From Eledone cirrhosa (lineage: Eukaryota): 64,000 nt of DNA. The notes under the pieces were generated by a model, which was not told the DNA's origin, did no database searches, and worked only from the letters and a program-made list of their open reading frames with translations. The stretch spans positions 204,972,001 through 205,036,000 of the forward strand of contig OZ024743.1 in the NCBI GenBank assembly GCA_964016885.1, written 5' to 3'. The position numbers and the translations under genes were made by a program. How positions within the stretch are numbered: the stretch's first letter is position 1; every line of letters begins with the position of its first letter. Shown here piece after piece: positions 38,644 to 61,586 of this stretch.

Positions 38644-38730
38644 TATATATATATATATATATATATTAAATATATATATATATATATTAAATATATATAT
38701 ATATATATTAAATATATATATATATATATA

Positions 38731-39841
38731 TGTAGATAAATCTACCAAGAGTTTACGGTAGTGTCCAATCCGTATGAAGAACTCAATGTATTCCGGATAT
38801 CATGGAAAGAAGAGATGTAATGAAAATCCAATTTCGGTGAAAGATAAACGGTATACAGAGTCAAGATAAAATATTAAACAAATAATGAACAAACAATTCC
38901 TTATATTAAACAAAAAAAGTTCACTATTTAACGATCGTTTCTAGGGCATATATGTGTTATAATTGGTATGCATATTTAACAGATCTATGTACAAAATTAT
39001 ACAAAATTATACAAATTATCAAGATTAAATATACATACCTAACTCATATATACGCCGTCTTCAGAAATAATGAAGTATATTTATTGATAATAACAACAAT
39101 TCAAAATATCAGTTCAAAATTGACCAATGAAAACACAAAGGGTTAAAAAGCAGTTTGGTGTGTGTATATACATGTAAAAACCTTACACACATTTTACAAT
39201 AATATGTGTATAATTTGTATGTGCATACTAAAAAGATGGATGCAAATAAAAAATTTCAAGGTTAATATCTCTGTAAGCTTAATGCGCTGATAAGATACGC
39301 AATGATACTTATGGAGTCAAGCATATAAATATATTTTTTTCATACTCACACATATCAGTATAATCACACATACATGTGCGTATATGTATAAATATACACA
39401 TAACCACGAACATACAAACACACACACTCCCCCACTCACATTTATATATGTGGATATAAAATCATAAGCAAATAGAAATAAAGTCACTCACATAAAACAC
39501 TGGTACACACATTTCAAGATCAAGATACAGAAATTAGGTGGGAGGGGGGGGAGGGGTCAGCATTAGATTGTCAGACCAGACAGCCTAATATAAATGTATC
39601 TATAAATTATGAAAAATAAAAAAATAAAAATAATAAAATATAATACATATAATATAATGTATATACGCATACAGATATACATACACATACATACATGTAC
39701 GCGCACATAGAGATATCTACACATACATACATACACACATACCTATACTGTCATAGACACACATACATTTACACGAACATACACATACACATATAAAAAG
39801 ATATAAATACAGACACACACACGCGCAACACATACACACAT

Positions 39842-39894
<53 letters not shown>

Positions 39895-40003
39895 TATACA
39901 CACACACATAGACTCATATATATATACATACACATACATATACTCATACACAAACATATATATTCCACACTCATACCACCATAAAAACACATACAAACAC
40001 CCA

Positions 40004-40052
<49 letters not shown>

Positions 40053-40261
40053 ACATACACACACGTACACATATATGTATATATATATACACATATACAC
40101 ACATACACACATATATATACACACACACATAAAATACAGACATGCACACACATATACATATATATATATTTCATTACTCTTATATATACACATAGTATAT
40201 ATATATACACAACCTCACTTATACATACATACACACAAGTTATATTACAATAATAATAAAG

Positions 40262-40314
<53 letters not shown>

Positions 40315-40433
40315 TACATACACGCATATACATATACATACATACATACACATACATACATACACCTAAATATATACATATATAAATACACACATACGAA
40401 TAAAGACATATATTCACACATAGACACCTATAT

Positions 40434-40474
<41 letters not shown>

Positions 40475-40515
40475 TATATACACACACATACACATACATA
40501 CACATATATATATAT

Positions 40516-40546
<31 letters not shown>

Positions 40547-43500
40547 GACACACATATACACTCACATATATATATATATATATATATATGTGTATGTGAG
40601 TGTGCGCAAATACATATATATATACACACACACATACAAACACACAAAAAACACATACATATGCATACGTGCACACACACACACATATATCACATAGATA
40701 CAAAGATAAACATATAAATAGAGAGACATACAAATATATACAAAACCCATATACACATACATACAAACACGCATATACATATATATACATATATACACAC
40801 ATATATATTCCTATATACAAGCATACACATACACACACATATATACATATACATACACATATACATACTACACATTCACATACACACACATATATAATAC
40901 ATATATATACATATATATACATACATATGTATGTACAATCATATATACACACTCAATCTTACATTCATATTTACATGCTCATATATGTATTTTTATATTT
41001 AGAAATAAATACCAAAAAACTAAATAGACACCCGTCTACACATATATTCATACGTATACACTTACAAAAACAGATGATAATAGTATGGGGGAAAGGGGGG
41101 GTTTGGAGAAGGGGATCAAAGTAAATATATGTTTCAAGAAACATATAATATTTTCCATATCTTAATTCAATGTATGTTCTTACATATTTTCAGTGCTAGG
41201 AAACACGAAATCTATGCATCACAAAATAAAAAAGTATACCATTAATCATATGTCAACTAAACCAAAGATAGTCAACATATTGATTTCCAAGGTGTAAATT
41301 AGTTAGGTTTAAATATTTGAAGCAGAATTATGAAGTCAAACAGTAGTAGATTATTAATTACATTATAACTAAATTAAAGTTAATAACGTTATGGTATCAA
41401 TATTAGGAGATGAATTTAGTAATAGGGAAAAGAAACCCAAATAAAAATAAAATAAAGTATTACATCGGTAGTAGCATATAAATTATATGTTAACTAAGTT
41501 AAAAATTATATATTTATTTCAATAGTATACGTTAATTAGTATATGTTAATTAGGTATACAATACATAAAGCAGATATTGTATTTCATCAATAGCATAATA
41601 TAATTATATGCAAATAAAAATCAAAATTAATACGCATACATATACATATACATACACATACACATACATATACATATACATACACATATATATATATATA
41701 CATATACATATATATACACATACATACATATATAGTCACATAAAAATACATACGGATACACATACAACACACACATATACATATACATATAGATCTACAT
41801 ATCTTTTTCAAAAAATTGCACAGAATATATTAACTAGGTATATATCCAAAACACCTCCCATTCTATGATTACATGACATTCTGCAATTCGTCTGTACAAG
41901 GATACTAATTTTAAGCAAATTAAAATTAAAGTTTTAGGTTGATTAAAACTAAAACCAAATAATAAATATATTTCCAAAATGTATATTAATTAGGTCAATA
42001 ATACTAAAAATTCTTTCTCCGTCATAGGATACATGATATTATTTTGTTATATTTTATCTGTAAAAGAATTATAAAAAATTATAATAAAAGGTTAAACTAA
42101 ATTAAAAAATTATAATAAAAGGTTAAAATAAGTTAAAATTAATCTATAAATTAAATTACTGAATATATATTAGTAATATTTAAAGGTTTTTCAAAATTTA
42201 TGATTACATAATATTTTCTCATCTGTAATAAAATATTAATTAAATTAAATTTATAGGTTAACTAACATTTAAATTAAATTAAATTCTAGAATAATGTTAT
42301 TAATTAGGTTTATAATATTTAAATGTTTTTTTTAGTTTATGATTACACGATATAATTAATTCCTGTCTTTTATTTAATAAGATATCTCTAGACTTCATTA
42401 TTTCAAATAGTTCTTGGGAACATAATCTACATTCCTTTCTATTATTTTGATAAGGGGTGGCTCTCTTGAGCACACTCCAGGTCAAATCATATTTTATATT
42501 TTTATTTTTATAACTATTGATTTTTTCTGCTAGAGATGTTGTATTAGCCAGTGCGGCATTTTTAAAGCTATGTTTGTGGGTATTATACCTTGTCTTAAAA
42601 TTGTTAGAGGTAGCTCCTATATATGAGCAAATAGAATCTTTAGTTTTAACATTACATTTATAGACTATGTTGTTAACAAGACAATTCCCTTTTAATGGGC
42701 AGTTTGTTTTGTTTCTACAGTTACATCCTTTCGTTAATTCTGTATTTGAGGAGATATTATTGTTAATTTGATGTACTGGTGGTATACTTATGGTTTTCTT
42801 ACATTTATATGCATTATATGCACTTATATTTTGTTTTATGTTATTTGTTGTAGAGTATGAGAATTTAACTGTAGACCTATTTAAGATTTGATGGTATTTG
42901 TGGTTTGGCGGGAAGTTTTTCTCAAGGATATAAAAAAATTTTTTAGCAATATTATCCTTAACTTGTAAATTAAAAGGAGCATTATACCAAGTAACTCGTC
43001 TATTACGGTTTCTATGTTGTTTATTATTTTTATTATTTTTATATGTTGTATCATGATTTTTACTAGGAGGAATAATGTTAATGATCTCGCCACAACTATT
43101 TTTAGTTATATTTGTAGATTTAGGTGTTTTATCTTTTTTATTAGGAGTTTTATTATTAATATTTATTATAGTCGTATGATGAGTAGTTTTTTGAGGGTTA
43201 CTATACTTTATATTAGAAGATTTAGTATTTTGGGGTATACTGTGGGTGGCATTTAGGTGTGTACTTTTCATTTGGTGTTTGTTGGTAATATTATGCTGTA
43301 TGCTTTCAGTATTTTTAGTAGAAGGTATATATTCTAATCTATTTTTGTGGCCACTTCTATCTAGAGCTTCATTATAAAAGGTCACATTTTTATCAAATAC
43401 ATCTTGGTTAGAAGAAAGGTTAGAAATTCTAAGTGATATATTATATGCAAGGTTTTTAAGGATAGATTTAGGGTGATTAGATTGTGAGTGTATGTAATGT

Positions 43501-43758
43501 AAGTTTTGGTTAGGTTTATGGTAAGGTTGGTATATACCCGTAGCTAAATCTAAAGTTATATCTAGGAAATTTACTACTTTACTTGTTTTTTCAAAAGTAA
43601 TATTAAGATTATAATAGTCTTTAAGGAAAGTTCTAATATGCTTTTTGTTTTTTTCGATTTCTGAAAGGCTAAGGTTGTTAGAAAGAAGAAGACAGTCATC
43701 ACGATATAAACCACCTTTGAGGTGGGGAAAAGAGGCATTTATGTTGAAAAGGAGAAAG
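38731..43758 (-). mobile_element. Longer 5'-truncated PLE copy (RT C-terminal part + GIY-YIG + 3' region + hammerhead + ~135 bp extra 3' tail)
   Basis: The minus-strand frame reads FLLFNINASFPHLKGGLYRDD from ~43758 and stops at 42300. The 3' region runs to the (TA)n at ~38731. Confidence 0.88.
38920..39074 (-). ncRNA. Putative type I hammerhead ribozyme (mirror copy)
   Basis: Reverse complement of 47840-47994; TCTTCAG at 39058-39064 and AACGATCGTTTC at 38930-38941. Confidence 0.72.
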
Positions 43759-43907
43759 ATATTAATAATAAAACTCCTAATAAAAAAGATAAAACACCTA
43801 AATCTACAAATATAACTAAAAATAGTTGTGGCGAGATCATTAACATTATTCCTCCTAGTAAAAATCATGATACAACATATAAAAATAATAAAAATAATAA
43901 ACAACAT
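42300..43907 (-). CDS. 5'-truncated Penelope-like (Neptune-type) reverse transcriptase/GIY-YIG endonuclease; first ~49 aa are antisense of the inverted copy
   Basis: RT catalytic GLYRDD (YRDD at 43706-43695), VNFLDITL, thumb YxKP...YIHxxSNHP...LRISNLSS, RxVTWYNAPF, Cys cluster CNCRNKTNCPLKGNC, IVY-x12-YIG, FKTRYNTH, CRLCSQE, LLNKRQE and terminal CNH. The N-terminal RT motifs are absent. No internal stops. Confidence 0.88.
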   Translation of the reverse strand: MLFIIFIIFICCIMIFTRRNNVNDLATTIFSYICRFRCFIFFIRSFIINIFLLFNINASFPHLKGGLYRDDCLLLSNNLSLSEIEKNKKHIRTFLKDYYNLNITFEKTSKVVNFLDITLDLATGIYQPYHKPNQNLHYIHSQSNHPKSILKNLAYNISLRISNLSSNQDVFDKNVTFYNEALDRSGHKNRLEYIPSTKNTESIQHNITNKHQMKSTHLNATHSIPQNTKSSNIKYSNPQKTTHHTTIININNKTPNKKDKTPKSTNITKNSCGEIINIIPPSKNHDTTYKNNKNNKQHRNRNRRVTWYNAPFNLQVKDNIAKKFFYILEKNFPPNHKYHQILNRSTVKFSYSTTNNIKQNISAYNAYKCKKTISIPPVHQINNNISSNTELTKGCNCRNKTNCPLKGNCLVNNIVYKCNVKTKDSICSYIGATSNNFKTRYNTHKHSFKNAALANTTSLAEKINSYKNKNIKYDLTWSVLKRATPYQNNRKECRLCSQELFEIMKSRDILLNKRQELIISCNHKLKKTFKYYKPN

Positions 43908-44621
43908 AGAAACCGTAATAGACGAGTTACTTGGTATAATGCTCCTTTTAATTTACAAGTTAAGGATAATATTGCTAAAAAATTTTTTTATATCCTTGAG
44001 AAAAACTTCCCGCCAAACCACAAATACCATCAAATCTTAAATAGGTCTACAGTTAAATTCTCATACTCTACAACAAATAACATAAAACAAAATATAAGTG
44101 CATATAATGCATATAAATGTAAGAAAACCATAAGTATACCACCAGTACATCAAATTAACAATAATATCTCCTCAAATACAGAATTAACGAAAGGATGTAA
44201 CTGTAGAAACAAAACAAACTGCCCATTAAAAGGGAATTGTCTTGTTAACAACATAGTCTATAAATGTAATGTTAAAACTAAAGATTCTATTTGCTCATAT
44301 ATAGGAGCTACCTCTAACAATTTTAAGACAAGGTATAATACCCACAAACATAGCTTTAAAAATGCCGCACTGGCTAATACAACATCTCTAGCAGAAAAAA
44401 TCAATAGTTATAAAAATAAAAATATAAAATATGATTTGACCTGGAGTGTGCTCAAGAGAGCCACCCCTTATCAAAATAATAGAAAGGAATGTAGATTATG
44501 TTCCCAAGAACTATTTGAAATAATGAAGTCTAGAGATATCTTATTAAATAAAAGACAGGAATTAATTATATCGTGTAATCATAAACTAAAAAAAACATTT
44601 AAATATTATAAACCTAATTAA
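43722..44621 (+). CDS. Duplicate C-terminal fragment of the PLE ORF (linker, Cys cluster, GIY-YIG endonuclease); true homology begins at 43759
   Basis: Protein is identical to the minus ORF from INNKTPNKKDK to the end. Cys cluster starts at 44196, IVY at 44253-44261, YIG at 44298-44306. The start is GTG in the antisense spacer, so translation is doubtful. Confidence 0.8.
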   Translation: MGKRGIYVEKEKDINNKTPNKKDKTPKSTNITKNSCGEIINIIPPSKNHDTTYKNNKNNKQHRNRNRRVTWYNAPFNLQVKDNIAKKFFYILEKNFPPNHKYHQILNRSTVKFSYSTTNNIKQNISAYNAYKCKKTISIPPVHQINNNISSNTELTKGCNCRNKTNCPLKGNCLVNNIVYKCNVKTKDSICSYIGATSNNFKTRYNTHKHSFKNAALANTTSLAEKINSYKNKNIKYDLTWSVLKRATPYQNNRKECRLCSQELFEIMKSRDILLNKRQELIISCNHKLKKTFKYYKPN

Positions 44622-45119
44622 TAACATTATTCTAGAATTTAATTTAATTTAAATGTTAGTTAACCTATAAATTTAATTTAATTAATATTTTATTACAGAT
44701 GAGAAAATATTATGTAATCATAAATTTTGAAAAACCTTTAAATATTACTAATATATATTCAGTAATTTAATTTATAGATTAATTTTAACTTATTTTAACC
44801 TTTTATTATAATTTTTTAATTTAGTTTAACCTTTTATTATAATTTTTTATAATTCTTTTACAGATAAAATATAACAAAATAATATCATGTATCCTATGAC
44901 GGAGAAAGAATTTTTAGTATTATTGACCTAATTAATATACATTTTGGAAATATATTTATTATTTGGTTTTAGTTTTAATCAACCTAAAACTTTAATTTTA
45001 ATTTGCTTAAAATTAGTATCCTTGTACAGACGAATTGCAGAATGTCATGTAATCATAGAATGGGAGGTGTTTTGGATATATACCTAGTTAATATATTCTG
45101 TGCAATTTTTTGAAAAAGA

Positions 45120-46372
45120 TATGTAGATCTATATGTATATGTATATGTGTGTGTTGTATGTGTATCCGTATGTATTTTTATGTGACTATATATGTATGTA
45201 TGTGTATATATATGTATATGTATATATATATATGTGTATGTATATGTATATGTATGTGTATGTGTATGTATATGTATATGTATGCGTATTAATTTTGATT
45301 TTTATTTGCATATAATTATATTATGCTATTGATGAAATACAATATCTGCTTTATGTATTGTATACCTAATTAACATATACTAATTAACGTATACTATTGA
45401 AATAAATATATAATTTTTAACTTAGTTAACATATAATTTATATGCTACTACCGATGTAATACTTTATTTTATTTTTATTTGGGTTTCTTTTCCTTATTAC
45501 TAAATTCATCTCCTAATATTGATACCATAACGTTATTAACTTTAATTTAGTTATAATGTAATTAATAATCTACTACTGTTTGACTTCATAATTCTGCTTC
45601 AAATATTTAAACCTAACTAATTTACACCTTGGAAATCAATATGTTGACTATCTTTGGTTTAGTTGACATATGATTAATGGTATACTTTTTTATTTTGTGA
45701 TGCATAGATTTCGTGTTTCCTAGCACTGAAAATATGTAAGAACATACATTGAATTAAGATATGGAAAATATTATATGTTTCTTGAAACATATATTTACTT
45801 TGATCCCCTTCTCCAAACCCCCCCTTTCCCCCATACTATTATCATCTGTTTTTGTAAGTGTATACGTATGAATATATGTGTAGACGGGTGTCTATTTAGT
45901 TTTTTGGTATTTATTTCTAAATATAAAAATACATATATGAGCATGTAAATATGAATGTAAGATTGAGTGTGTATATATGATTGTACATACATATGTATGT
46001 ATATATATGTATATATATGTATTATATATGTGTGTGTATGTGAATGTGTAGTATGTATATGTGTATGTATATGTATATATGTGTGTGTATGTGTATGCTT
46101 GTATATAGGAATATATATGTGTGTATATATGTATATATATGTATATGCGTGTTTGTATGTATGTGTATATGGGTTTTGTATATATTTGTATGTCTCTCTA
46201 TTTATATGTTTATCTTTGTATCTATGTGATATATGTGTGTGTGTGTGCATGTATGCATATGTATGTGTTTTTTGTGTGTTTGTATGTGTGTGTGTATATA
46301 TATATGTATTTGCGCACACTCACATACACATATATATATATATATATATATATGTGAGTGTATATGTGTGTC

Positions 46373-46403
<31 letters not shown>

Positions 46404-46444
46404 ATATATATATATGTGTATGTATGTGTATGTGTGTGTATATA

Positions 46445-46485
<41 letters not shown>

Positions 46486-46604
46486 ATATAGGTGTCTATG
46501 TGTGAATATATGTCTTTATTCGTATGTGTGTATTTATATATGTATATATTTAGGTGTATGTATGTATGTGTATGTATGTATGTATATGTATATGCGTGTA
46601 TGTA

Positions 46605-46657
<53 letters not shown>

Positions 46658-46866
46658 CTTTATTATTATTGTAATATAACTTGTGTGTATGTATGTATAA
46701 GTGAGGTTGTGTATATATATATACTATGTGTATATATAAGAGTAATGAAATATATATATATGTATATGTGTGTGCATGTCTGTATTTTATGTGTGTGTGT
46801 ATATATATGTGTGTATGTGTGTATATGTGTATATATATATACATATATGTGTACGTGTGTGTATGT

Positions 46867-46911
<45 letters not shown>

Positions 46912-47020
46912 TGGGTGTTTGTATGTGTTTTTATGATGGTATGAGTGTGGAATATATATGTTTGTGTATGAGTATATGTATGTGTATGTATATATATATG
47001 AGTCTATGTGTGTGTGTATA

Positions 47021-47067
<47 letters not shown>

Positions 47068-47250
47068 ATGTGTGTATGTGTTGCGCGTGTGTGTGTCTGT
47101 ATTTATATCTTTTTATATGTGTATGTGTATGTTCGTGTAAATGTATGTGTGTCTATGACAGTATAGGTATGTGTGTATGTATGTATGTGTAGATATCTCT
47201 ATGTGCGCGTACATGTATGTATGTGTATGTATATCTGTATGCGTATATAC
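45120..47250 (+). repeat. Complex (TA)/(TG)/(TATG) microsatellite islands inside the PLE 3' region (mirror at ~39660-41800)
   Basis: TG/TA-rich blocks at ~45120-45290 and ~45960-47250, present in both arms. Confidence 0.85.
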
Positions 47251-47839
47251 ATTATATTATATGTATTATATTTTATTATTTTTATTTTTTTATTTTTCAT
47301 AATTTATAGATACATTTATATTAGGCTGTCTGGTCTGACAATCTAATGCTGACCCCTCCCCCCCCCCCCTCCCACCTAATTTCTGTATCTTGATCTTGAA
47401 ATGTGTGTACCAGTGTTTTATGTGAGTGACTTTATTTCTATTTGCTTATGATTTTATATCCACATATATAAATGTGAGTGGGGGGAGTGTGTGTGTTTGT
47501 ATGTTCGTGGTTATGTGTATATTTATACATATACGCACATGTATGTGTGATTATACTGATATGTGTGAGTATGAAAAAAATATATTTATATGCTTGACTC
47601 CATAAGTATCATTGCGTATCTTATCAGCGCATTAAGCTTACAGAGATATTAACCTTGAAATTTTTTATTTGCATCCATCTTTTTAGTATGCACATACAAA
47701 TTATACACATATTATTGTAAAATGTGTGTAAGGTTTTTACATGTATATACACACACCAAACTGCTTTTTAACCCTTTGTGTTTTCATTGGTCAATTTTGA
47801 ACTGATATTTTGAATTGTTGTTATTATCAATAAATATAC

Positions 47840-47994
47840 TTCATTATTTCTGAAGACGGCGTATATATGAGTTAGGTATGTATATTTAATCTTGATAATT
47901 TGTATAATTTTGTATAATTTTGTACATAGATCTGTTAAATATGCATACCAATTATAACACATATATGCCCTAGAAACGATCGTTAAATAGTGAA
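47840..47994 (+). ncRNA. Putative type I hammerhead ribozyme with extended helix II
   Basis: Helix I is TTCATTATTT (47840-49) pairing with AAATAGTGAA (47985-94). Core CTGAAGA (47850-56) and GAAA (47973-76). Minimal palindromic helix III C-GATC-G within AACGATCGTT; cleavage triplet GTT (47982-84). Its position near the 3' end fits known PLE hammerheads. Confidence 0.72.
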
Positions 47995-48145
47995 CTTTTT
48001 TTGTTTAATATAAGGAATTGTTTGTTCATTATTTGTTTAATATTTTATATATATATATATATTAAATATATATATATATATATATATATTAAATATATAT
48101 ATATATATATATATATATTAAATATATATATATATATATATATAT

Positions 48146-48180
<35 letters not shown>

Positions 48181-48770
48181 CACTTTCATGTTACACACTA
48201 TATATAAACTGGGATTTATATTTTGCGTTAGTGCCATATTAAGGTGACAACGATATATTCGTATCTTAAAAAATATTTTTTTTAGATCACATTGTTCTAG
48301 ATATTAAAATTATTAAATCTATTTTCAATTTGCACGAACACTTGCATATACTACATACATACATTTATATAGACACTAACACAAATATTAGCATATACAT
48401 AATTTCTTAGTCATTGAGGATGTGTTTTTATACATACATATGCATATTGCATACATACATACATACACACATACAAGCATATACATAGACATACACACAC
48501 ACATATATAAACACACTGTATATATATATATACATACACACACACACACATATATATATACACACACACACTATATATATATATAGTGTGTGGTGTATAT
48601 ATATATATGTTTGTGTGTGTATGTATATATATACAGTGTGTGTATATATATGTGTGTGTATGTGTATGTATATGCTTGTATGTCTGTATGTATGGATGCA
48701 ATATGCATATGTATGTATAAAAAACACATCCTCAATTACTAAGAAAATATGTATATGCTAATATTTGTGT

Positions 48771-48802
<32 letters not shown>

Positions 48803-48876
48803 CGCACACACTATATATATATATATATATACATACACACTATATATATATATATACACACACACTATATATTATA

Positions 48877-48910
<34 letters not shown>

Positions 48911-51900
48911 AATCCCATTAAAAACCACATTAAAAATTCAATTAAAAATCTATTTTGAAAAACCCATTAAAAACCCCATTATAAGCTCATAAAACACTCC
49001 ATTAAAACCCCAACCAAACCCCCCATTAAAACACAATTAAAACATCATTAAGAATGCCAATAAAAGCGCCATTAAAAACTACATTGGAAACCCATAAAAA
49101 CCCAATTAAAACAAAATTAAAGTTTCCATTAAAAGTCCCCATTAAAACTCCATTAAAACCCCCATTAACCCCCCCTCGAAAAGACATTAAAACCTCAAAT
49201 TTAAACCGAAATAAAAACTCAATTAAAACGCAATTAAAAACTCAATTAAAACACCATTAAAAACACAATTAAAAGCCCATTAAACCAATTAAAATTGCAT
49301 TAACACACCACTAAGGTTCTATTGGAAAACCATTAAAAATGTCATTAAAAACTACACTGAAAACCCATTAAACCCCCATTAAAAGCGCACCCAAAACTTT
49401 ATAAAAAAACAAATAAAAAACCCCATTAAAATACCATTAAAACGGCATAAAACACCATTAAAACTACATTAAAACTCAATTAAAAATTCCATTTAAATCT
49501 CCATTATAAACTCAATTAAAACTCCATTAAAACTCAATTAAAAACTCCATTAAAAACACACACACATGAAGTTACATGCTGGCTTGCACACTTATAGCGA
49601 TTGCTATTTCCTTTTAATTTCATTAAAACTAGGATGTTTTAGAAAGATAAAAACAAAACTGAATAATGAAGAGACTAGGGAGGGGTAAAGAAAGGCAGAT
49701 CAGGCTGTAGAGGACAGTAGGGGGAGAAGAGGGAAGAGACTTGGGAGGGGTAAAGAAAGGCAGATCTGGCTGTAGAGGACAGTAGGGGGAGAAGAGGGAG
49801 AAATAAACTAAATTATAAACTAAGTTATAAACTAAATTATAAACTAAATTAAAAACTCAATAAAATAAAATAAAATAAAATAAAATAAAATAAAATAAAA
49901 TAAAATAAAATAAAATAAAATAAAATAAAATAAAATAAAATAAAATAAAATAAAATAAAATAAAAAAAAATAAAATAAAATAAAATAAAATAAAATAAAA
50001 TAAAATAAAATAAAATAAAATAAAAAAAATAAAATAAAATAAAATAAAAAAAACTAAAAAATATAAATAAAATAAAATAAAATAAATAAAATAAAATAAA
50101 ATAAAATAAAATAAATAAAAATAAAATAAAATAAAAAAAAATAAAAAAAAATTAAATATAAAAAATAAATAAAATAAAATAAAATAAGAACTCAATTAAA
50201 AACTCAGTAAAAACTCAATTAAAAACTCAATTAAAAACTCAATCGAAGCACCATTAAAACACCATTAAAAACTCCACTATAAACCCACTAAACCCATTAA
50301 AAACCAATTAAAAATTCAATTACACATCCCATTAGAAATTTCATTAAAAACTCAATTAAAAGTTCCATTGAAAACACATTCAAAACCCATTAACCCCATA
50401 TTAAAAGTTCATAAAACTCTATTAAAAACCCAATAACAAACCAATTAAAACGCCATTAAAACGCCACAAAACACAATAAAATGTCATAAAAACGCCATTA
50501 AAACACCACAAAAAGCCCAATTAAAAAACCATTAATAATGTCATTAAAAATTCCATAAAAATCCATTAAAAACTCCACTAAAAGCCCATTAAAAAGTTCA
50601 TTAAAAGCCATATTATAAATTTCATAAAAAACAATTGAAAACCCCATTATTTATGAGCCTTTTTTTATGAGTTTTTAATAGTGTTTTAATTCAGTTTTTA
50701 ATTGCGTTTAAAATTGGGTTTTAATGGCTTTTTAATGGTGTTTTAATGGGATTTTCGATGGTGTTTAATGGGTTTTTTATGGAGTTTTTAATTGGGTTTT
50801 CAATGGTGTTGTTTATGAGTTTTTAAATGGGTTTTTAATGGAATTTTTGATTGCGTTTTTAATGAAATTTTTAATAGATTCAAGGATGTTTTAATGGAGT
50901 TTTTAATGGCGTTTTAATTGTGTTTTTATGGTGTTTAAATGCGTTTTAATGATTTTTAATTGGGTTTTTAATGGAGTATTTTTAATGAGCTCTTAATGGA
51001 TTTTTCAATTGGATACTTAATGGGTTTTAATGGAATTTATAATAAGGGTTCTAATTGACTTTAAATATGATTTTTAATGGAGTTTTTAATGAAATTTCTA
51101 ATGGTGTTTTTAATTGCGTTTCCCCCCGTGAGGGTTTTAATGGCATTTTAAATGACATTTTAATGAGTTTTTATGATGTTTTAATGGCGTTGTAATTGTT
51201 TTTTATTGGGTTTTTAATATAATTTTGTATGAGCTTTTAATGGGGGTTTTCAATGTTGTTTTTAATGGAGTGTTTAATGGAATTTTAATGGGGGTTTGAT
51301 AAAAAAAATTAATTGCTTTTTAATTTAATTTTTAATGCGTTTTTGATGGTGTTTAAGTGCGTTCATGATGATCTTTTTAATGGATTTTTAATGGGGTTTT
51401 AATTGAATTTTTAATGGTGTTTTCAATGTAATTTTTAATGATAGTTTAATGGTGTTTTAATGACGTTTTAATTGTGTTTTTTATGGTGTTTTAGTGACGT
51501 TTAAATAGGATTTTTAATTGGTTTTTTAATTGAGTATTTATATGAGTTTTCACTGGTGTTTTTAATGGGTTTTTCAATATTGCATTTAATGAAATTTTTA
51601 ATATGGTTTCAAATGGAATTTTTAATGTGTTTTTAATTGGGTTTCTAGTGACGTTTTTAATGGTACTTTAAATGACGTTTTAATGACTTTTATGGCGTTT
51701 TAATGGGTTTTTTAATTGGGTTTTTAATGTAGTTTTTTAAAAGATCTTTACTTGGGATTTTATGGGTTTTCAATGCGGTTTTTAATGGTATATTAATGGA
51801 GTTTTTGGTGTGGTTGTTAATGGTATTAGTGACATTTTAATGTGTTTTTAATGGTGTTTTAAGCGAGTTTCTGATTTAGTTTAAATTTAAATATTTGATG

Positions 51901-53493
51901 GTCCTTCTAATGGGCTTTAATGGATGTGTAATGTGTTTAATGCAATTTTAATGGGGTTTAATGGGGGTAGTAGGTTTCAATGGGTTTTAATGGAGTTTTA
52001 ATGGCTAGTGCTCTTTTTTAAAGAGTTTTTAATGGTGTTTTTAATGGTTTTTCATTGAGCTTTTAATTGCGTTTTTAATCTAGTTTAAAAATTGAGTTTT
52101 AATGGGTTTTTCAATTAGGTTTTTAATGGATTTATAATGGTGTTTTTTACGGACCCTTTAATTTTTTATAATGGGTTTTCAATGCCGTTTTAATGGTGTT
52201 TTTTAATGGTATCCTTAATGACGCTTCGATAAGTTTCAATGTTATTTTAATGGGGTTTTGATTGATTTTTTAATGGAGTTTTTTTAATGAACTTTTATTG
52301 GGGTTTTCAATCAGGTTTTTAACTGAATTTTTAATGTTTTTCAATTAGATTTTTTATGGAGTTTTTATGGGCTTTTTAATGAGTTTTTAATGGTGTGCTA
52401 ATTGAGTTTTCAATTACCTTTTTAATTGAGTATAAAATCGAGTTTTTACTAAGTTTTTAATGAATTTTTAATGGAATTTTAATGGGGTTTCCAATGGACT
52501 TTTAATTGTGTTTTAATGGGGTTTTAAAATTGGTTTTTAGTTGCATTTTTCAGGGGCTTTTAATGGGGCTTAATGGGGGTTTAATGGGGGATTTAATTGA
52601 GTTTTTAATGGAGTTTAATAGAGTTTATAATGGAGGTTTTAATGGAGTTTTTAATGAAGTTTTAATGTAGTTTTTAATGAGGTTTTTAATGACGATTTTA
52701 ATGGCGTTCTTAATGGCGTTTTAATGGTATTTTATGGCATTTTAATGACGGTTGTAATGGTTTTTAATGGAGTGTTAATTGGTTATTGATTGTATTTTAA
52801 TGGGTTTTATGAGCTTTTTAATGGGCTTTTTAGTGGTGTTTTTAATGGAGTTTTTAATGGGTCTTTTAATGGAATTTGCAATGTAGTTTTTAATGGTGTT
52901 TTTAATTGTATTTTTAATGACGTTTTAATGGTGTTTTTTATGGCGTTTTAATAGGATTTTTAATTGGTTTTTTAAAAAACTATTATTATGGGTTTTATGT
53001 AATTTTATAATGGGATTTTCAGTAGGGTTTTTAATTGGATTTTTAATGGAGTTTATGTTTTTTAATTGGATTTTTAAAGAATTTATAATTGCGGTTTTAA
53101 TATAGTGTTTAATGGAGTATTTAATTGGTTTTTAATGGTAATTTTAATGGAGTGTTTAATGTGTTTTTAATGGGGGAGGAGGGGGGTAAAATGCAGTTTT
53201 TAATTGAGTTATCAATGGAGTTTTTAATGACATTTTTAATGACGTTTTAATAGCGTTTTATGACGTTTTAATGACGTTTTAATGGTTTTTTTATTGGGTT
53301 TTGGGAGTTTTTATGAGCTTCTAATTAGGTTTTAAATGGGGTTTTCAATGAGGTTTTTAGTGGAATTTTTAATGGGCCTTTAATGTATTTTTAATGGGAT
53401 TTTAATGTTTTTTATGGCGTTTTTAATGGTATTTTAAATGCTGTTTTAATGTTTCTTTTATGGCCTTTTAATTGGGTTTTTGATTGAGTTTTT

Positions 53494-53592
53494 AATGGAT
53501 TTTTTTTAACGGATTTTTTTTTAATGGATTTTTTTTAATGGATTTTTTTTTTATGGATTTTTTTTTATGGATTTTTTTTAATGGATTTTTTA
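53494..53592 (+). repeat. Unit-8-specific expansion of (A)ATGGA(T)6-10, ~7 copies
   Basis: Replaces ...GGATTTTTTTAACGAGAATTATGAAG seen in all other units. Confidence 0.9.
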
Positions 53593-54131
53593 ATGAAGTT
53601 TAATGGGTTTCCAGTGTGTTTTAAATGAAGTTTTTGATAATATTTTTAATGGAATTTTAATGGCGGTTATGGGATTTTAATGAGTTCTGGTGGTATTTTT
53701 GTGGGTTTTAATGGGGTGTTAAATGGTTTTAATGTTGTTTTACTTGCGCTTTCGATTACGTTTACAATTAAGTTTTTACTGTTTTTAATTGGATTTTTAA
53801 TGGATTTTAATGTGGTTTTTAATGGAATTTTAATGGTGTTTTAATATAGTTTTTAATGGGTTTCGGATGTAGCTTTTAATGGTGGTTTAGTGTGCTTTTT
53901 ATTGGGTTTTTAATGAGTTTTTATGAGCTTTTCAATGGAGTTTTTAATGGTGTTTATATATATATATATATACATACATATATATGTATATATATATATT
54001 TACACATATATATGTGTATATATATATGTATATATATATATTTACACATATATATGTGTATATATATATGTGTATATATATATTTACACATATATATGTG
54101 TATATATATATTTACACATATATATGTGTAT

Positions 54132-54169
<38 letters not shown>

Positions 54170-54170
54170 T

Positions 54171-54205
<35 letters not shown>

Positions 54206-54301
54206 TATATATATATATATATATATTAAATATATATATATATATATATATTAAATATATATATATATATATATATATTAAATATATATATATATATATA
54301 T

Positions 54302-54338
<37 letters not shown>

Positions 54339-54361
54339 TATATATATATATATATATATAT

Positions 54362-54420
<59 letters not shown>

Positions 54421-55013
54421 CACTTTCATGTTACACACTATATATAAACTGGGATTTATATTTTGCGTTAGTGCCATAATAAGCTGACAACGATATATTC
54501 GTATCTTAAAAAATATTTTTTTTAGATCACATTGTTCTAGATATTATTAAAATTATTAAATCTATTTTCAATTTGCACGAACACTTGCATATACTACATA
54601 CATACATTTATATAGACACTAACACAAATATTAGCATATACATAATTTCTTAGTCATTGAGGATGTGTTTTTATACATACATATGCATATTGCATACATA
54701 CATACATACACACATACAAGCATATACATAGACATACACACACACATATATACACACACTGTATATATATATATACATACACACACACACACATATATAT
54801 ATACACACACACACTATATATATATATAGTGTGTGGTGTATATATATATATGTGTGTGTGTGTATGTATATATATACAGTGTGTGTATATATATGTGTGT
54901 GTATGTGTATGTATATGCTTGTATGTGTGTATGTATGGATGCAATATGCATATGTATGTATAAAAAACACATCCTCAATTACTAAGAAAATATGTATATG
55001 CTAATATTTGTGT

Positions 55014-55045
<32 letters not shown>

Positions 55046-55108
55046 CGCACACACTATATATATATATATATATACATACACACTATATATATATATATAC
55101 ACACACAC

Positions 55109-55157
<49 letters not shown>

Positions 55158-58100
55158 AATCCCATTAAAAACCACATTAAAAATTCAATTAAAAATCTAT
55201 TTTGAAAAACCCATTAAAAACCCCATTATAAGCTCATAAAACACTCCATTAAAACCCCAACCAAACCCCCCATTAAAACACAATTAAAACATCATTAAGA
55301 ATGCCAATAAAAGCGCCATTAAAAACCACATTGGAAACCCATAAAAACCCAATTAAAACAAAATTAAAGTTTCCATTAAAAGTCCCCATTAAAACTCCAT
55401 TAAAACCCCCATTAACCCCCCCCTCGAAAAGACATTAAAACCTCAAATTTAAACCGAAATAAAAACTCAATAAAAACGCAATTAAAAACTCAATTAAAAC
55501 ACCATTAAAAACACAATTAAAAGCCCATTAAACCAATTAAAATTGCATTAACACACCACTAAGGTTCCATTGGAAAACCATTAAAAATGTCATTAAAAAC
55601 TACACTGAAAACCCATTAAACCCCCATTAAAAGCGCACCCAAAACTTTATAAAAAACAAAATAAAAACCCCATTAAAATACCATTAAAACGGCATAAAAC
55701 ACCATTAAAACTACATTAAAACTCAATTAAAAATTCCATTTAAATCTCCATTATAAACTCAATTAAAACTCCATTAAAACTCAATTAAAAACTCCATTAA
55801 AAACACACACACATGAAGTTACATGCTGGCTTGCACACTTATAGCGATTGCTATTTCCTTTTAATTTCATTAAAACTAGGATGTTTTAGAAAGATAAAAA
55901 CAAAACTGAATATTGAAGAGACTAGGGAGGGGTAAAGAAAGGCAGATCAGGCTGTAGAGGACAGTAGGGGGAGAAGAGGGAAGAGACTTGGGAGGGGTAA
56001 AGAAAGGCAGATCTGGCTGTAGAGGACAGTAGGGGGAGAAGAGGGAGAAATAAACTAAATTATAAACTAAGTTATAAACTAAATTATAAACTAAATTAAA
56101 AACTCAATAAAATAAAATAAAATAAAATAAAATAAAATAAAATAAAATAAAATAAAATAAAATAAAATAAAATAAAATAAAATAAAATAAAATAAAATAA
56201 AATAAAATAAAAAATAAAATAAAATAAAATAAAATAAAATAAAATAAAATAAAATAAAATAAAATAAAATAAAAAAAAATAAAATAAAATAAAATAAAAA
56301 AAACTAAAAAATATAAATAAAATAAAATAAAATAAATAAAATAAAATAAAATAAAATAAATAAAAATAAAATAAAATAAAATAAAATAAAATAAAATAAT
56401 ATAAAATAAAATAAAATAAAATAAAATAAAATAAAATAAAATAAAATAAAATAAAATAAAATAAAATAAAATAAAATAAAAAATAAAATAAAATAAAATA
56501 AAATAAAATAAAATAAAATAAAATAAAATAAAATAAAATAAAAAAAAATAAAATAAAATAAAATAAAAAAAACTAAAAAATATAAATAAAATAAAATAAA
56601 ATAAATAAAATAAAATAAAATAAAATAAAATAAATAAAAATAAAATAAAATAAAAAAAAATAAAAAAAAATTAAATATAAAAAATAAATAAAATAAAATA
56701 AAATAAGAACTCAATTAAAAACTCAGTAAAAACTCAATTAAAAACTCAATTAAAAACTCAATCGAAGCACCATTAAAACACCATTAAAAACTCCACTATA
56801 AACCCACTAAACCCATTAAAAACCAATTAAAAATTCAATTACACATCCCATTAGAAATTTTATTAAAAACTCAATTAAAAGTTCCATTGAAAGCACATTC
56901 AAAACCCATTAACCCCATATTAAAAGTTCATAAAACTCTATTAAAAACCCAATAACAAACCAATTAAAACGCCATTAAAACGCCACAAAACACAATAAAA
57001 TGTCATAAAAACGCCATTAAAACATCACAAAAAGCCCAATTAAAAAACCATTAATAATGCCATTAAAAATTCCATAAAAATCCATTAAAAACTCCACTAA
57101 AAGCCCATTATAAAGTTCATTAAAAGCCATATTATAAATTTCATAAAAAACAATTGAAAACCCCATTATTTATGAGCCTTTTTTATGAGTTTTTAATAGT
57201 GTTTTAATTCAGTTTTTAATTGCGTTTAAAATTGGGTTTTAATGGCTTTTTAATGGTGTTTTAATGGAATTTTAATGTGATTTTCGATGGTGTTTAATGG
57301 GTTTTTTATGGAGTTTTTAATTGGGTTTTCAATGGTGTTGTTTATGAGTTTTAAATGGGTTTTTAATGGAATTTTTGATTGCGTTTTTAATGAAATTTTT
57401 AATAGATTCAAGGATGTTTTAATGGAGTTTTTAATGGTCTTTTTAATGGCGTTTTAATTGTGTTTTTATGGTGTTTAAATGCGTTTTAATGATTTTTAAT
57501 TGGGTTTTTAATGGAGTATTTTTAATGAGCTCTTAATGGATTTTTCAATTGGATACTTAATGGGTTTTAATGGAATTTATAATAAGGGTTCTAATTGACT
57601 TTAAATATGATTTTTAATGGAGTTTTTAATGAAATTTCTAATGGTGTTTTTAATTGCGTTTCCCCCCGTGAGGGTTTTAATGGCATTTTAAATGACATTT
57701 TAATGAGTTTTTATGATGTTTTAATGGCGTTGTAATTGTTTTTTATTGGGTTTTTAATATAATTTTGTATGAGCTTTTAATGGGGGTTTTCAATGTTGTT
57801 TTTAATGGAGTGTTTAATGGAATTTTAATGGGGGTTTGATAAAAAAAATTAATTGCTTTTTAATTTAATTTTTAATGCGTTTTTGATGGTGTTTAAGTGC
57901 GTTCATGATGATCTTTTTAATGGATTTTTAATGGGGTTTTAATTGAATTTTTAATGGTGTTTTCAATGTAATTTTTAATGATAGTTTAATGGTGTTTTAA
58001 TGACGTTTTAATTGTGTTTTTATGGTGTTTTAGTGACGTTTAAATAGGATTTTTAATTGGTTTTTTAATTGAGTATTTATATGAGTTTTCACTGGTGTTT

Positions 58101-60608
58101 TTAATGGGTTTTTCAATATTGCATTTAATGAAATTTTTAATATGGTTTCAAATGGAATTTTTAATGTGTTTTTAATTGGGTTTCTAGTGACGTTTTTAAT
58201 GGTACTTTAAATGACGTTTTAATGACTTTTATGGCGTTTTAATGGGTTTTTTAATTGGGTTTTTAATGTAGTTTTTTAAAAGATCTTTACTTGGGATTTT
58301 ATGGGTTTTCAATGCGGTTTTTAATGGTATATTAATGGAGTTTTTGGTGTGGTTGTTAATGGTATTAGTGACATTTTAATGTGTTTTTAATGGTGTTTTA
58401 AGCGAGTTTCTGATTTAGTTTAAATTTAAATATTTGATGGTCCTTCTAATGGGCTTTAATGGATGTGTAATGTGTTTAATGCAATTTTAATGGGGTTTAA
58501 TGGGGGTAGTAGGTTTCAATGGGTTTTAATGGAGTTTTAATGGCTAGCGCTCTTTTTTTAAGAGTTTTTAATGGTGTTTTTAATGGTTTTTCATTGAGCT
58601 TTTAATTGCGTTTTTAATTGCGTTTTTAATCTAGTTTAAAAATTGAGTTTTAATGGGTTTTTCAATTAGGTTTTTAATGGATTTATAATGGTGTTTTTTA
58701 CGGACCCTTTAATTTTTTATAATGGGTTTTCAATGCCGTTTTAATGGTGTTTTTTAATGGTATCCTTAATGACGCTTCGATAAGTTTCAATGTTATTTTA
58801 ATGGGGTTTTGATTGATTTTTTAATGGAGTTTTTTTAATGAACTTTTATTGGGGTTTTCAATCAGGTTTTTAACTGAATTTTTAATGTTTTTCAATTAGA
58901 TTTTTTATGGAGTTTTTATGGGCTTTTTAATGAGTTTTTAATGGTGTGCTAATTGAGTTTTCAATTACCTTTTTAATTGAGTATAAAATCGAGTTTTTAC
59001 TAAGTTTTTAATGAATTTTTAATGGAATTTTAATGGGGTTTCCAATGGACTTTTAATTGTGTTTTAATGGGGTTTTAAAATTGGTTTTTAGTTGCATTTT
59101 CAGGGGCTTTTAATGGGGCTTAATGGGGGTTTAATGGGGGATTTAATTGAGTTTTTAATGGAGTTTAATAGAGTTTATAATGTAGGTTTTAATGGAGTTT
59201 TTAATGAAGTTTTAATGTAGTTTTTAATGAGGTTTTTAATGACGATTTTAATGGCGTTCTTAATGGCGTTTTAATGGTATTTTATGGCATTTTAATGACG
59301 GTTGTAATGGTTTTTAATGGAGTGTTAATTGGTTATTAATTGTATTTTAATGGGTTTTATGAGCTTTTTAATGGACTTTTTAGTGGTGTTTTTAATGGAG
59401 TTTTTAATGGGTCTTTTAATGGAATTTGCAATGTAGTTTTTAATGGTGTTTTCAATTGTATTTTTAATGACGTTTTAATGGTGTTTTTTATGGCGTTTTA
59501 ATAGGATTTTTAATTGGTTTTTTAAAGGACTATTATTATGGGTTTTTTATGTAATTTTATAATGGGATTTTCAGTAGGGTTTTTAATTGGATTTTTAATG
59601 GAGTTTATAATATGTTTTTTAATTGGATTTTTAAAGAATTTATAATTGCGGTTTTAATATAGTGTTTAATGGAGTATTTAATTGGTTTTTAATGGTAATT
59701 TTAATGGAGTGTTTAATGTGTTTTTAATGGGGGAGGAGGGGGTAAAATGCAGTTTTTAATTGAGTTATCAATGGAGTTTTTAATGACATTTTTAATGACG
59801 TTTTAATAGCGTTTTATGACGTTTTAATGACGTTTTAATGGTTTTTTTATTGGGTTTTGGGAGTTTTTATGAGCTTCTAATTAGGTTTTAAATGGGGTTT
59901 TCAATGAGGTTTTTAGTGGAATTTTTAATGGGCCTTTAATGTATTTTTAATGGGATTTTAATGTTTTTTATGGCGTTTTTAATGGTATTTTAAATGCTGT
60001 TTTAATGTTTCTTTTATGGCCTTTTAATTGGGTTTTTGATTGAGTTTTTAATGGATTTTTTTAACGAGAATTATGAAGTTTAATGGGTTTCCAGTGTGTT
60101 TTAAATGAAGTTTTTGATAATATTTTTAATGGAATTTTAATGGCGGTTATGGGATTTTAATGGGTTCTGGTGGTATTTTTGTGGGTTTTAATGGGGTGTT
60201 AAATGGTTTTAATGTTGTTTTACTTGCGCTTTCGATTACGTTTACAATTAAGTTTTTACTGTTTTTAATTGGATTTTTAATGGATTTTAATGTGGTTTTT
60301 AATGGAATTTTAATGGTGTTTTAATATAGTTTTTAATGGGTTTCGGATGTAGCTTTTAATGGTGGTTTAGTGTGCTTTTTATTGGGTTTTTAATGAGTTT
60401 TTATGAGCTTTTCAATGGAGTTTTTAATGGTGTTTATATATATATATATACATACATACATATATATGTATATATATGTATTTACACATATATATGTGTA
60501 TATATATATGTGTATATATATATTTACACATATATATGTGTATATATATATTTACACATATATATGTGTATTAAATATATATATATATATAAATATATAT
60601 ACATATAT

Positions 60609-60676
<68 letters not shown>

Positions 60677-60751
60677 TATATATATATATATATATATTAA
60701 ATATATATATATATATATATATATTAAATATATATATATATATATATATAT

Positions 60752-60796
<45 letters not shown>

Positions 60797-61414
60797 TATA
60801 TATATATATATATATATATATTCCACTTTCATGTTACACACTATATAAAAACTGGGATTTATATTTTGCGTTAGTGCCATATTAAGCTGACAACGATATA
60901 TTCGTATCTTAAAAAATATTTTTTTTAGATCACATTGTTCTAGATATTATTAAAATTATGAAATCTATTTTCAATTTGCACGAACACTTGCATATACTAC
61001 ATACATACATTTATATAGACACTAACACAAATATTAGCATATACATAATTTCTTAGTCATTGAGGATGTGTTTTTATACATACATATGCATATTGCATAC
61101 ATACATACATACACACATACAAGCATATACATAGACATACACACACACATATATACACACACTGTATATATATATATACATACACACACACACACATATA
61201 TATATACACACACACACTATATATATATAGTGTGTGGTGTATATATATATATGTGTGTGTGTGTATGTATATATATACAGTGTGTGTATATATATGTGTG
61301 TGTATGTGTATGTATATGCTTGTATGTGTGTATGTATGGATGCAATATGCATATGTATGTATAAAAAACACATCCTCAATTACTAAGAAAATATGTATAT
61401 GCTAATATTTGTGT

Positions 61415-61446
<32 letters not shown>

Positions 61447-61507
61447 CGCACACACTATATATATATATATATACATACACACTATATATATATATATACA
61501 CACACAC

Positions 61508-61586
<79 letters not shown>

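Follow-up and report, generated by a model that had tools for sequence, protein, structure and literature searches.

A hammerhead ribozyme with an exceptionally long helix II was located in the terminal repeat (pseudo-LTR) of a Penelope-like element (PLE) in the genome of Eledone cirrhosa (GCA_964016885.1, contig OZ024743.1, positions 204,972,001 to 205,036,000 of the forward strand; this 64,000-nucleotide stretch is referred to as the window). The reading favoured, at a probability of about 0.62, is that of a selected, weak, dimer-type hammerhead which would stand at the capped 5' end of the transcript of a Hydra-clade PLE and stay mostly uncut in the template, and whose helix II was expanded once and houses a promoter-proximal module. 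The evidence comprised the fold and its register, the recurrence of the motif in five families of copies, a double change in the core of one of them, a pile-up of genomic-copy 5' ends, two element 3' ends and insertion into (TA)n.

In the window the motif was read as a 10-bp helix I with one G·U pair, the core half CUGAAGA, a helix II of 116 nt, GAAA, a 2-bp helix III and the triplet GUU (Table 1), as described in a first-pass annotation made from the letters alone. A CUGANGA and GAAA core, an NUH triplet, a three-way junction and an open helix I are the features of a type I hammerhead and were all present; the association with PLEs was borne out. The cut was predicted after 47984, in agreement between the annotation and the end of the GUU triplet. 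Helix III lies within the palindrome AACGATCGTT at 47975-47984 (also written AACGAUCGUU); it was palindromic in all families and had a low predicted probability, as expected of the minimal helix III suited to dimers that had been suggested. An Rfam scan of 40000-56000 at E<=1 returned 143 matches, all of them microRNA matches driven by (TA)n and none to a hammerhead family, and in a scan of the window nothing reached the gathering score. The motif is missed by Rfam, as anticipated for standard descriptors.

The region 47830-48005 folded with z = -4.8 against shuffles. Helix II alone reached z = -6.5, with -38.8 kcal/mol on the + strand vs -24.7 on the - strand, which upheld the view that the fold belongs to this strand as RNA. 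All helix II segments listed in the annotation were present: above the base stood about 9 bp, a 4-bp stem, a 15-bp stem including one G·U, and an apical GAU/AUC plus UGUA/UACA hairpin, the loop of which holds 1-3 copies of the 10-mer TTTGTATAAT, the repeat that had been noticed. Single representatives of families B, C, D and G folded at z -4.2, -4.4, -3.8 and -2.6.

The base of helix II was placed by covariation at C47857·A47972, G47858·U47971, G47859-C47970 and C47860·C47969. To score the register, pairs were assigned by counting from each core half towards the middle of helix II in the unaligned sequences of 104 distinct copies (families A-E); standard majority pairs numbered 49/60 in the true register vs 12/55 to 37/60 in shifted ones. 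Pair 10.2-11.2 was G·U, A-U or G-C depending on the family, family D had G-C at four pairs where the other families have A-U, and a C·C at 10.4/11.4 was constant throughout. Across 22 aligned copies of families A-D, 93.5% of cells paired vs 26-59% in slid controls, and one helix I pair varied between U-A, C-G and U·G. A model made without family G matched G copies end to end at 73-87 bits. Helices I and II of the putative ribozyme are supported by these covariations. The check proposed in the annotation, covariation in related families, gave compensatory changes in five families; these belong to Hydra and not, as had been supposed, to Neptune.

Two other registers were discarded. The annotation had paired GGC with GCC and seen a non-canonical base, C opposite CUA; this register had a pair probability of 0.02, was contradicted by covariation, and the junction had looked non-canonical because it was drawn in the wrong register. 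The slipped helix II base of RNAfold was likewise rejected by covariation. Neither the base nor the triplet is odd for the clade: in File S2 of PMC8557442, counted by hand, 15 of the 25 Hydra families, whose motifs are listed as canonical, were mismatched at 10.1/11.1, and 10 cut after U, so GUU is not unusual. The observation itself was confirmed and its interpretation partly supported; the probable start of transcription within helix I and the intron-like module of helix II had escaped the annotation.

Complete-motif patterns matched the genome 6,350 times with a gap of 101-130 nt and 716 times with a gap of 71-100 nt. Reversed controls gave one match each, so the motif is not due to chance, and the genome holds at least 7,000 complete long-arm copies. 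The pattern of the 3' half-core alone matched 18,022 times, some copies being counted twice, and all 40 scored matches of a 176-nt query were 100% identical. Long arms, with about 100-126 nt between the core halves, fell into five families: A (the window copy), B, C, D and G. Endonuclease identity to family A was 85-87% for B, 74-76% for C, 62-66% for D, 56-60% for G and 41-45% for the short-armed family E. The endonuclease tree was built from segments cut against a family A query, with the family G open reading frame (ORF) assigned by adjacency and with relatives only; in it the 12 long-helix rows formed one clade (support 98/98), which argues for a single origin of the long arm.

Family G had a different basal stem, yet the same C·A and C·C. 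Its core read TTGA(A/C)AA (UUGAAAA or UUGACAA as RNA) in 19 of 30 unselected copies and CTGANGA in none, the other 11 being truncated or decayed. The pair C3-G8 is there replaced by U3-A8, a double change indicating that the core is under selection. Family E, the sister with a 31-nt helix II, dominated 5,545 pattern matches. Of 77 related metagenomic loci, 55 carried a hammerhead on the sense strand in which 10-25 nt separate the core halves; the remaining 22 had none by strict scan, three of them showing short ones on other inspection. The long form was not found in the 17 metagenomic loci scanned with the model, and a 149-nt antisense match in one locus (L320) lay inside an ORF and was dropped as chance. 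A search of viral contigs by motif pattern gave 13 matches with no relative among them.

To tally the 5' ends of genomic copies, an anchor lying 19 nt 3' of the cut site was matched to the genome and the first 100 matches in the list were mapped, three rows being reassigned by hand. Ends at 47842-47846 were seen in 31 copies, 17 of them exactly at A47843, and represented 22 separate insertions; 49 copies continued upstream, 7 began within 14 nt of the hot spot and 13 further in. None of the 100 began within 3 nt of the cut site, and four did so within about 7 nt. Since ends gather at A47843 (+1), 7 nt before the catalytic core, and none lies at the cut, the templates appear to have been intact across it. 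The sequence around A47843 is presumably initiator-like. An untemplated G at a fixed 5' end is a trace of reverse transcription over a cap. A non-native base preceded A47843 in 3,105 copies genome-wide and T47844 in 486; by hand count in the first 100 listed of each, G:T was 22:24 before A47843 vs 9:76 before T47844 (Fisher P=3.5e-6). In family G, where the offset had been predicted beforehand, the non-native base was G in 34, C in 30 and A in 19 of 83 matches; of 25 matches that were inspected, 24 were true junctions, 12 of them with G. These patterns suggest that the capped RNA starts within helix I and that the template was not cut. Family E copies, judged by eye and not by tally, appeared clustered at TC-A-CT about 90 nt 5' of their core. 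A transcript from +1 would keep only 7 bp of helix I, for which the predicted probability was 0.02 vs 0.6-1.0 with 10 bp (25 C), because UUUCU pairs with AGAAA.

Some copies mimicked +1 ends. Those preceded by '...GTAGAAACA' proved to be another repeat with a duplicated target (L181 and L204; assumed for L196 and L199), and were counted as not truncated and moved by hand. A repeat ending ...GTAGAAACAATT was inserted at ATTATTT of family B copies, the A47843 equivalent, in six loci (L181, L196, L199, L204, L262 and L263); the target duplications differed in length in L181 and L204, suggesting repeated targeting of that site. A rise in depth near +1 and a fall at the tail end of L015, in two unclassified contig runs, were not used as evidence, as contigs cannot show starts. 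At the L154/L205 and L448 junctions the 13 bases that follow +1 were present two or three times in head-to-tail order, which suggests repeated template jumps at the RNA 5' end.

The favoured reading may be put as a sequence of events. In a tandem copy, RNA polymerase II would start at the A of TC-A-TT, and the transcript would pass the hammerhead, two reverse transcriptase (RT) start points (+206 and +343), the ATG (+499), the ORF and a second hammerhead 6.1 kb downstream. The 5' hammerhead, with its 7 bp of helix I, would misfold through the UUUCU/AGAAA pairing. The RT-endonuclease would nick (TA)n and prime at each of the two internal points; short inverted pairs would result from run-off at the cap, with C added opposite the cap G, and long copies from templates with upstream 3' untranslated region (UTR). 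Cleavage would need two copies paired via ACGAUCGU, possibly with help from a protein, and a minor pool of RNA would be processed or circularised by it. The long arm would have arisen once, in the ancestor of the families, and was probably kept as the home of a promoter-proximal intron or promoter module, with the donor-like site hidden in the stem; other PLEs carry such a module upstream of the ribozyme.

Several results weigh against this reading. In RNAfold the window copy preferred the slipped helix II base (P 0.7-0.97 vs 0.01-0.08 for the comparative register), helix III seldom formed in its predicted fold (P 0.13), and the best predicted dimer was an extended duplex (-122 vs -111 kcal/mol for the double hammerhead). 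The copies did not exceed the shuffle controls for pair types (229/500 and 155/500), the middle stem of family D was misaligned by MAFFT, and the apical stems were invariant and so yielded no covariation. A strong preference for folding of the sense strand was confined to family A (42/42, vs 13/20 in B, 5/16 in C and 11/18 in D). As to the cap, the G excess against all bases reached only P=0.018, an extra G occurred in just 6 of the 17 exact starts among the 100 copies, and in a positional control on 29 junctions G stood at -1 in 8 and at -6 in 9, the latter because the CAG of the opposite arm falls there. If cleaved RNA were circularised, no 5' ends would be expected at the cut, so that cleavage in vivo is compatible with the tally. 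Start site, cleavage and splicing were all read from DNA.

What the long arm contains may be explained by a real short spliceosomal intron, a tentative extension of the favoured reading that is compatible with it and forms its bolder version. The folded arm would hide the donor and keep the intron in the template, and RNA that is unfolded, or opened by a protein, would be spliced to a 62-nt helix II, splicing and ribozyme folding together acting as a switch. A 54-nt intron-like module was read in the window (Table 1), with the sequence features of a U2-type intron (GT donor, branch motif, pyrimidine tract, YAG acceptor), and these were conserved. Over 119 distinct long arms, GTA(T/A)GTA and YAG|RTC were each present in 108, mostly 42-54 nt apart, and a YNYTRAY-like branch (TGAT) lay 23-34 nt before the AG. 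The exon-side bases varied (TTG, TAG, AAG, GAC, CAT), and the donor was the canonical GTAAGT in family G. In each of the five families the donor stood at +32 to +34 and was predicted to be paired within the middle stem (P about 0.9-1.0 in four families and 0.5-1.0 in G). Family E carried GGTA(T/C)GT 5' of its core, some 40 nt from the point where its own RNA apparently starts. Against an intron, 42-54 nt and a donor-to-branch distance of 19-25 nt are short for most animals; a donor-like hexamer was also found antisense in 41 of the 119 arms and the loose acceptor pattern in 113; and the donor could be spliced to another acceptor, for instance about 40 nt before the ATG. No spliced genomic copy occurred among 77 matches of the fitting length class, a result that is uninformative since PLE copies are known to retain introns. 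A precedent is Penelope of Drosophila virilis, with a 75-bp intron 46 bp after its start that overlaps the internal promoter (PMC2377424) and ends at helix I (PMC4209133). The most specific form of the proposal, doubtful as it stands, would place the intron inside helix II of a ribozyme beginning 7 nt after the cap, the arm masking its own donor and the short helix I keeping the 5' ribozyme off, so that one fold would select an unspliced, uncut template. If true, it would be a structural answer to why PLEs retain introns and keep a ribozyme that insertion does not need.

In 28 of 52 rows of metagenomic Hydra loci (L283-L359), the core was preceded at a distance of 0-7 nt by a U-rich tract plus AG, like the end of the Penelope intron; the count has no control, and a strict 3' splice site just 5' of helix I is not claimed for them.

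Alternatively, the apical motifs could be a binding site for the RT-endonuclease or downstream promoter elements acting as DNA, the arm being a scaffold that presents them. This is possible but on the unlikely side, and would account for the apical conservation about as well as splice signals do. The apical GAU/AUC and UGUA/UACA stems and the internal loop were nearly invariant though the endonucleases differ by up to 44%; the motifs lie at +45 to +90 from the putative start, where PLE promoters are internal (PMC2377424); and the Anolis hammerhead needs the protein of its element (PMC11167929). The interchange of GTATGT and GTAAGT and the donor-like motif of family E at a similar offset are left unexplained, however, and in Anolis the required RNA region lies near the RT start site, the hammerhead being dispensable (PMC11167929).

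An efficient processing ribozyme, in which both copies are cut during transcription and the 6.1-kb monomer is circularised to become the main template, has been proposed for PLEs and retrozymes (the model of PMC4209133). Selection on the core, the palindromic helix III of all families and the 49 of 100 copies that continue upstream of +1 would fit it. The 31 copies that stop at +1 with a G excess need a linear capped RNA intact across the cut, where no copy started; a cap-started copy is predicted to misfold, and uncut RNA dominates in Anolis (PMC11167929). Efficient processing was therefore considered improbable. Very improbable is a neutral insertion by fold-back into a ribozyme that is decaying, in which template switching would have produced the arm as an inverted duplication and the motif would be dead: PLEs readily make inverted repeats, the stems are rich in easily pairing (TA)n and the number of loop 10-mers varies, but this is largely refuted by the compensatory changes and the C·C that five families keep fixed, by the U3-A8 swap and by the invariant GAAACGAUCGU, leaving fold-back as a possible origin of the arm and not its present state.

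The hammerhead was also compared with known systems. Like Hydra-clade hammerheads (PMC8557442), it is of type I, lies near the element 3' end, has a short palindromic helix III and (TA)n targets, and goes with the same protein motifs. The distance between the core halves is about 100-126 nt here vs 12-26 nt in the 25 published families of File S2 and 10-25 nt in the 55 metagenomic loci, and the unit is 6.1 kb vs under about 3 kb for the published elements. The long helix II is new among the sets compared (25 published and 55 metagenomic Hydra motifs at 10-26 nt). Minimal PLE hammerheads (PMC4209133) have a palindromic helix III, an extra base after A9 and weak dimeric cleavage, and U3-A8 is a core covariation known from the S. 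mansoni variant. The dimer-type architecture, the extra or unpaired base after A9 and the U3-A8 variant are shared, as is an expected low activity. Helix II of such motifs has 3-9 bp and a small loop, and the 'larger than usual' ones of that paper have 7-8 bp, vs the 116 nt of the window copy. Their G10.1-C11.1 is replaced by C·A (families A, B, D and G; also metagenomic L337) or U-A (family C), followed by G·U, A-U or G-C.

The D. virilis Penelope element resembles the present one in a start site and internal promoter within a pseudo-LTR (long terminal repeat), a short intron or intron-like module near the hammerhead, and inverted and tandem insertions (PMC2377424; PMC4209133). In Penelope the ribozyme comes after an intron that ends at helix I, whereas here the core would start at +8 with the module inside helix II. 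In Poseidon of Anolis carolinensis, the tail lies between two internal sites at which RT starts, the enzyme works mainly on uncut RNA, and the hammerhead is assisted by protein (PMC11167929). Two internal RT starts bounding an optional tail, an apparently uncut template and the lack of ends at the cut are common to both; Poseidon belongs to another clade, its ORF starts within the hammerhead, its PLE tail is 30-40 nt vs 136 here, and in the parts of PMC11167929 compared no long helix II or cap hot spot is described. The Selaginella PLE-X1 hammerheads, marked as deviating in File S2 of PMC8557442, also have an enlarged stem/loop II, with about 54 nt between the core halves, the longest in that table; they have half the length, a large loop in place of a rod, and a long helix III or other deviations, and belong to a different clade. 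The 'long helix II' of PMC13725137 has 6 bp, and the portions consulted of PMC7229834 and bioRxiv 2026.07.22.740005 added nothing on arm length. In the literature searched, which included few subscription papers, no helix II of >100 nt in a PLE hammerhead, no intron inside helix II and no cap-site hot spot was reported.

In PMC8557442 both the role of PLE hammerheads and the reason why PLEs retain introns are called unknown. Natural variants for both questions are found in the lineage described here, which has copies by the thousand, five arm families, one of them with a U3-A8 core, a sister family with a short arm, and intact ORFs. It appears that the start of transcription and the state of the template can be mapped from the 5' ends of genomic copies alone, an approach applicable to any PLE family. 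The more than 7,000 complete copies show that even abundant hammerheads escape Rfam if their helix II is long, and censuses may undercount them. Self-cleavage as such would come as no surprise.

Table 1. Positions of the hammerhead, its putative transcript signals and the surrounding PLE arms in the window
Feature	Position	Strand	Remarks
Helix I, 5' strand TTCATTATTT	47840-47849	+	Read off sequence; a transcript from A47843 would hold only 47843-47849
Core C3-A9, CUGAAGA (DNA CTGAAGA)	47850-47856	+	UUGAAAA/UUGACAA in family G
Helix II, 116 nt	47857-47972	+	Sequence, folding, covariation
Intron-like module, 54 nt	47876-47929	+	Donor-like AG|GTATGTA (47876), branch-like TCTTGAT (A47895), acceptor-like TTTTGTACATAG| (47929)
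Core G12-A15.1 (GAAA 47973-47976), 2-bp helix III with GAUC loop, triplet GUU (47982-47984)	47973-47984	+	
Helix I, 3' strand AAATAGTGAA	47985-47994	+	Sequence and covariation
Likely capped transcription start, context TC-A-TT	47843	+	Hot spot of genomic-copy 5' ends; same offset in family G
AATAAA, 5' of the start site	47829-47834	+	Found in all five long-helix families; possible poly(A) signal
Second, identical hammerhead copy	38920-39074	-	Missed in the first-pass annotation
Right arm of PLE insertion	43759-48048	+	Truncated ORF end (linker and endonuclease, to 44621), 3.4-kb 3' UTR, hammerhead, end TTTTAT|(TA)n
Left, inverted arm	38730-43760	-	Longer 5'-truncated ORF piece (42300-43760), 3' UTR, 136-nt tail (38730-38865)

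The PLE insertion in the window spans 9.3 kb (38730-48048) and lies in the (TA)n tract of one tandem unit, a target typical of the Hydra clade. It consists of two inverted, 5'-truncated arms that are 99.5% identical across 4.3 kb; the 136-nt tail is present in the left arm only, and element 3' ends fall at two points 136 nt apart. Both arms are without an ORF start, and the window copy therefore cannot be autonomous. Intact ORFs were present among 20 genome stretches, such as one of 813 aa in L015, around which tandem hammerheads stand 6,112 nt apart in a dimer-type arrangement. Pfam gave no domain match for P0001-P0003, P0006 or P0017, and the clade was for this reason assigned by motifs. The P0003 protein has RWRA, SDKTG, CNCRNKTNC (a CxCX5C linker), CRLC (CxxC) and CNH (CxH) and no CCHH; this is the Hydra motif set (RWK-type, DKT, CxCX5C, CxxC, CxH) of section 11 of PMC8557442, and the protein resembles Hydra rows in the supplement of that paper. 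The Neptune clade named in the annotation was ruled out, as the CX2-5CxxC linker, the CCHH in the endonuclease and DKG are absent from P0003.

Other observations concern the copies and the surroundings of the element. P0003 has a low-complexity insertion rich in N, K, T and H at residues of about 480-575, between RT and linker, and most homologues are about 100 aa shorter. Family E (L405-L407, L033-L052, L385-L404) is a Hydra-like PLE of about 5,500 copies that shares the C·C mismatch and has a palindromic helix III of (AU)n, AUA as its triplet and tandem units of 3.7-4.1 kb. In L245 (G000:C1:162168500-162178400), four same-strand copies with a one-repeat loop were spaced 2.2-2.9 kb apart, each starting at +1 after a short inverted stub, which resembles later segmental amplification. 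The window flanks (1-38740 and 48049-64000), in which no tRNA, Rfam match or clear gene was found, hold about nine copies, 93-99% identical, of a tandem unit of roughly 6.2 kb. This unit is built from (AAAAT)n, (TA)n, a 65-mer rich in purines, and diverged 11-12-mers of the TTTTAATGG type that are repeated in both orientations. The 3' UTR at 44622-47839, about 3.2 kb and rich in (TG) and (TA) microsatellites, is far longer than that of published Hydra elements (<~3 kb in total).
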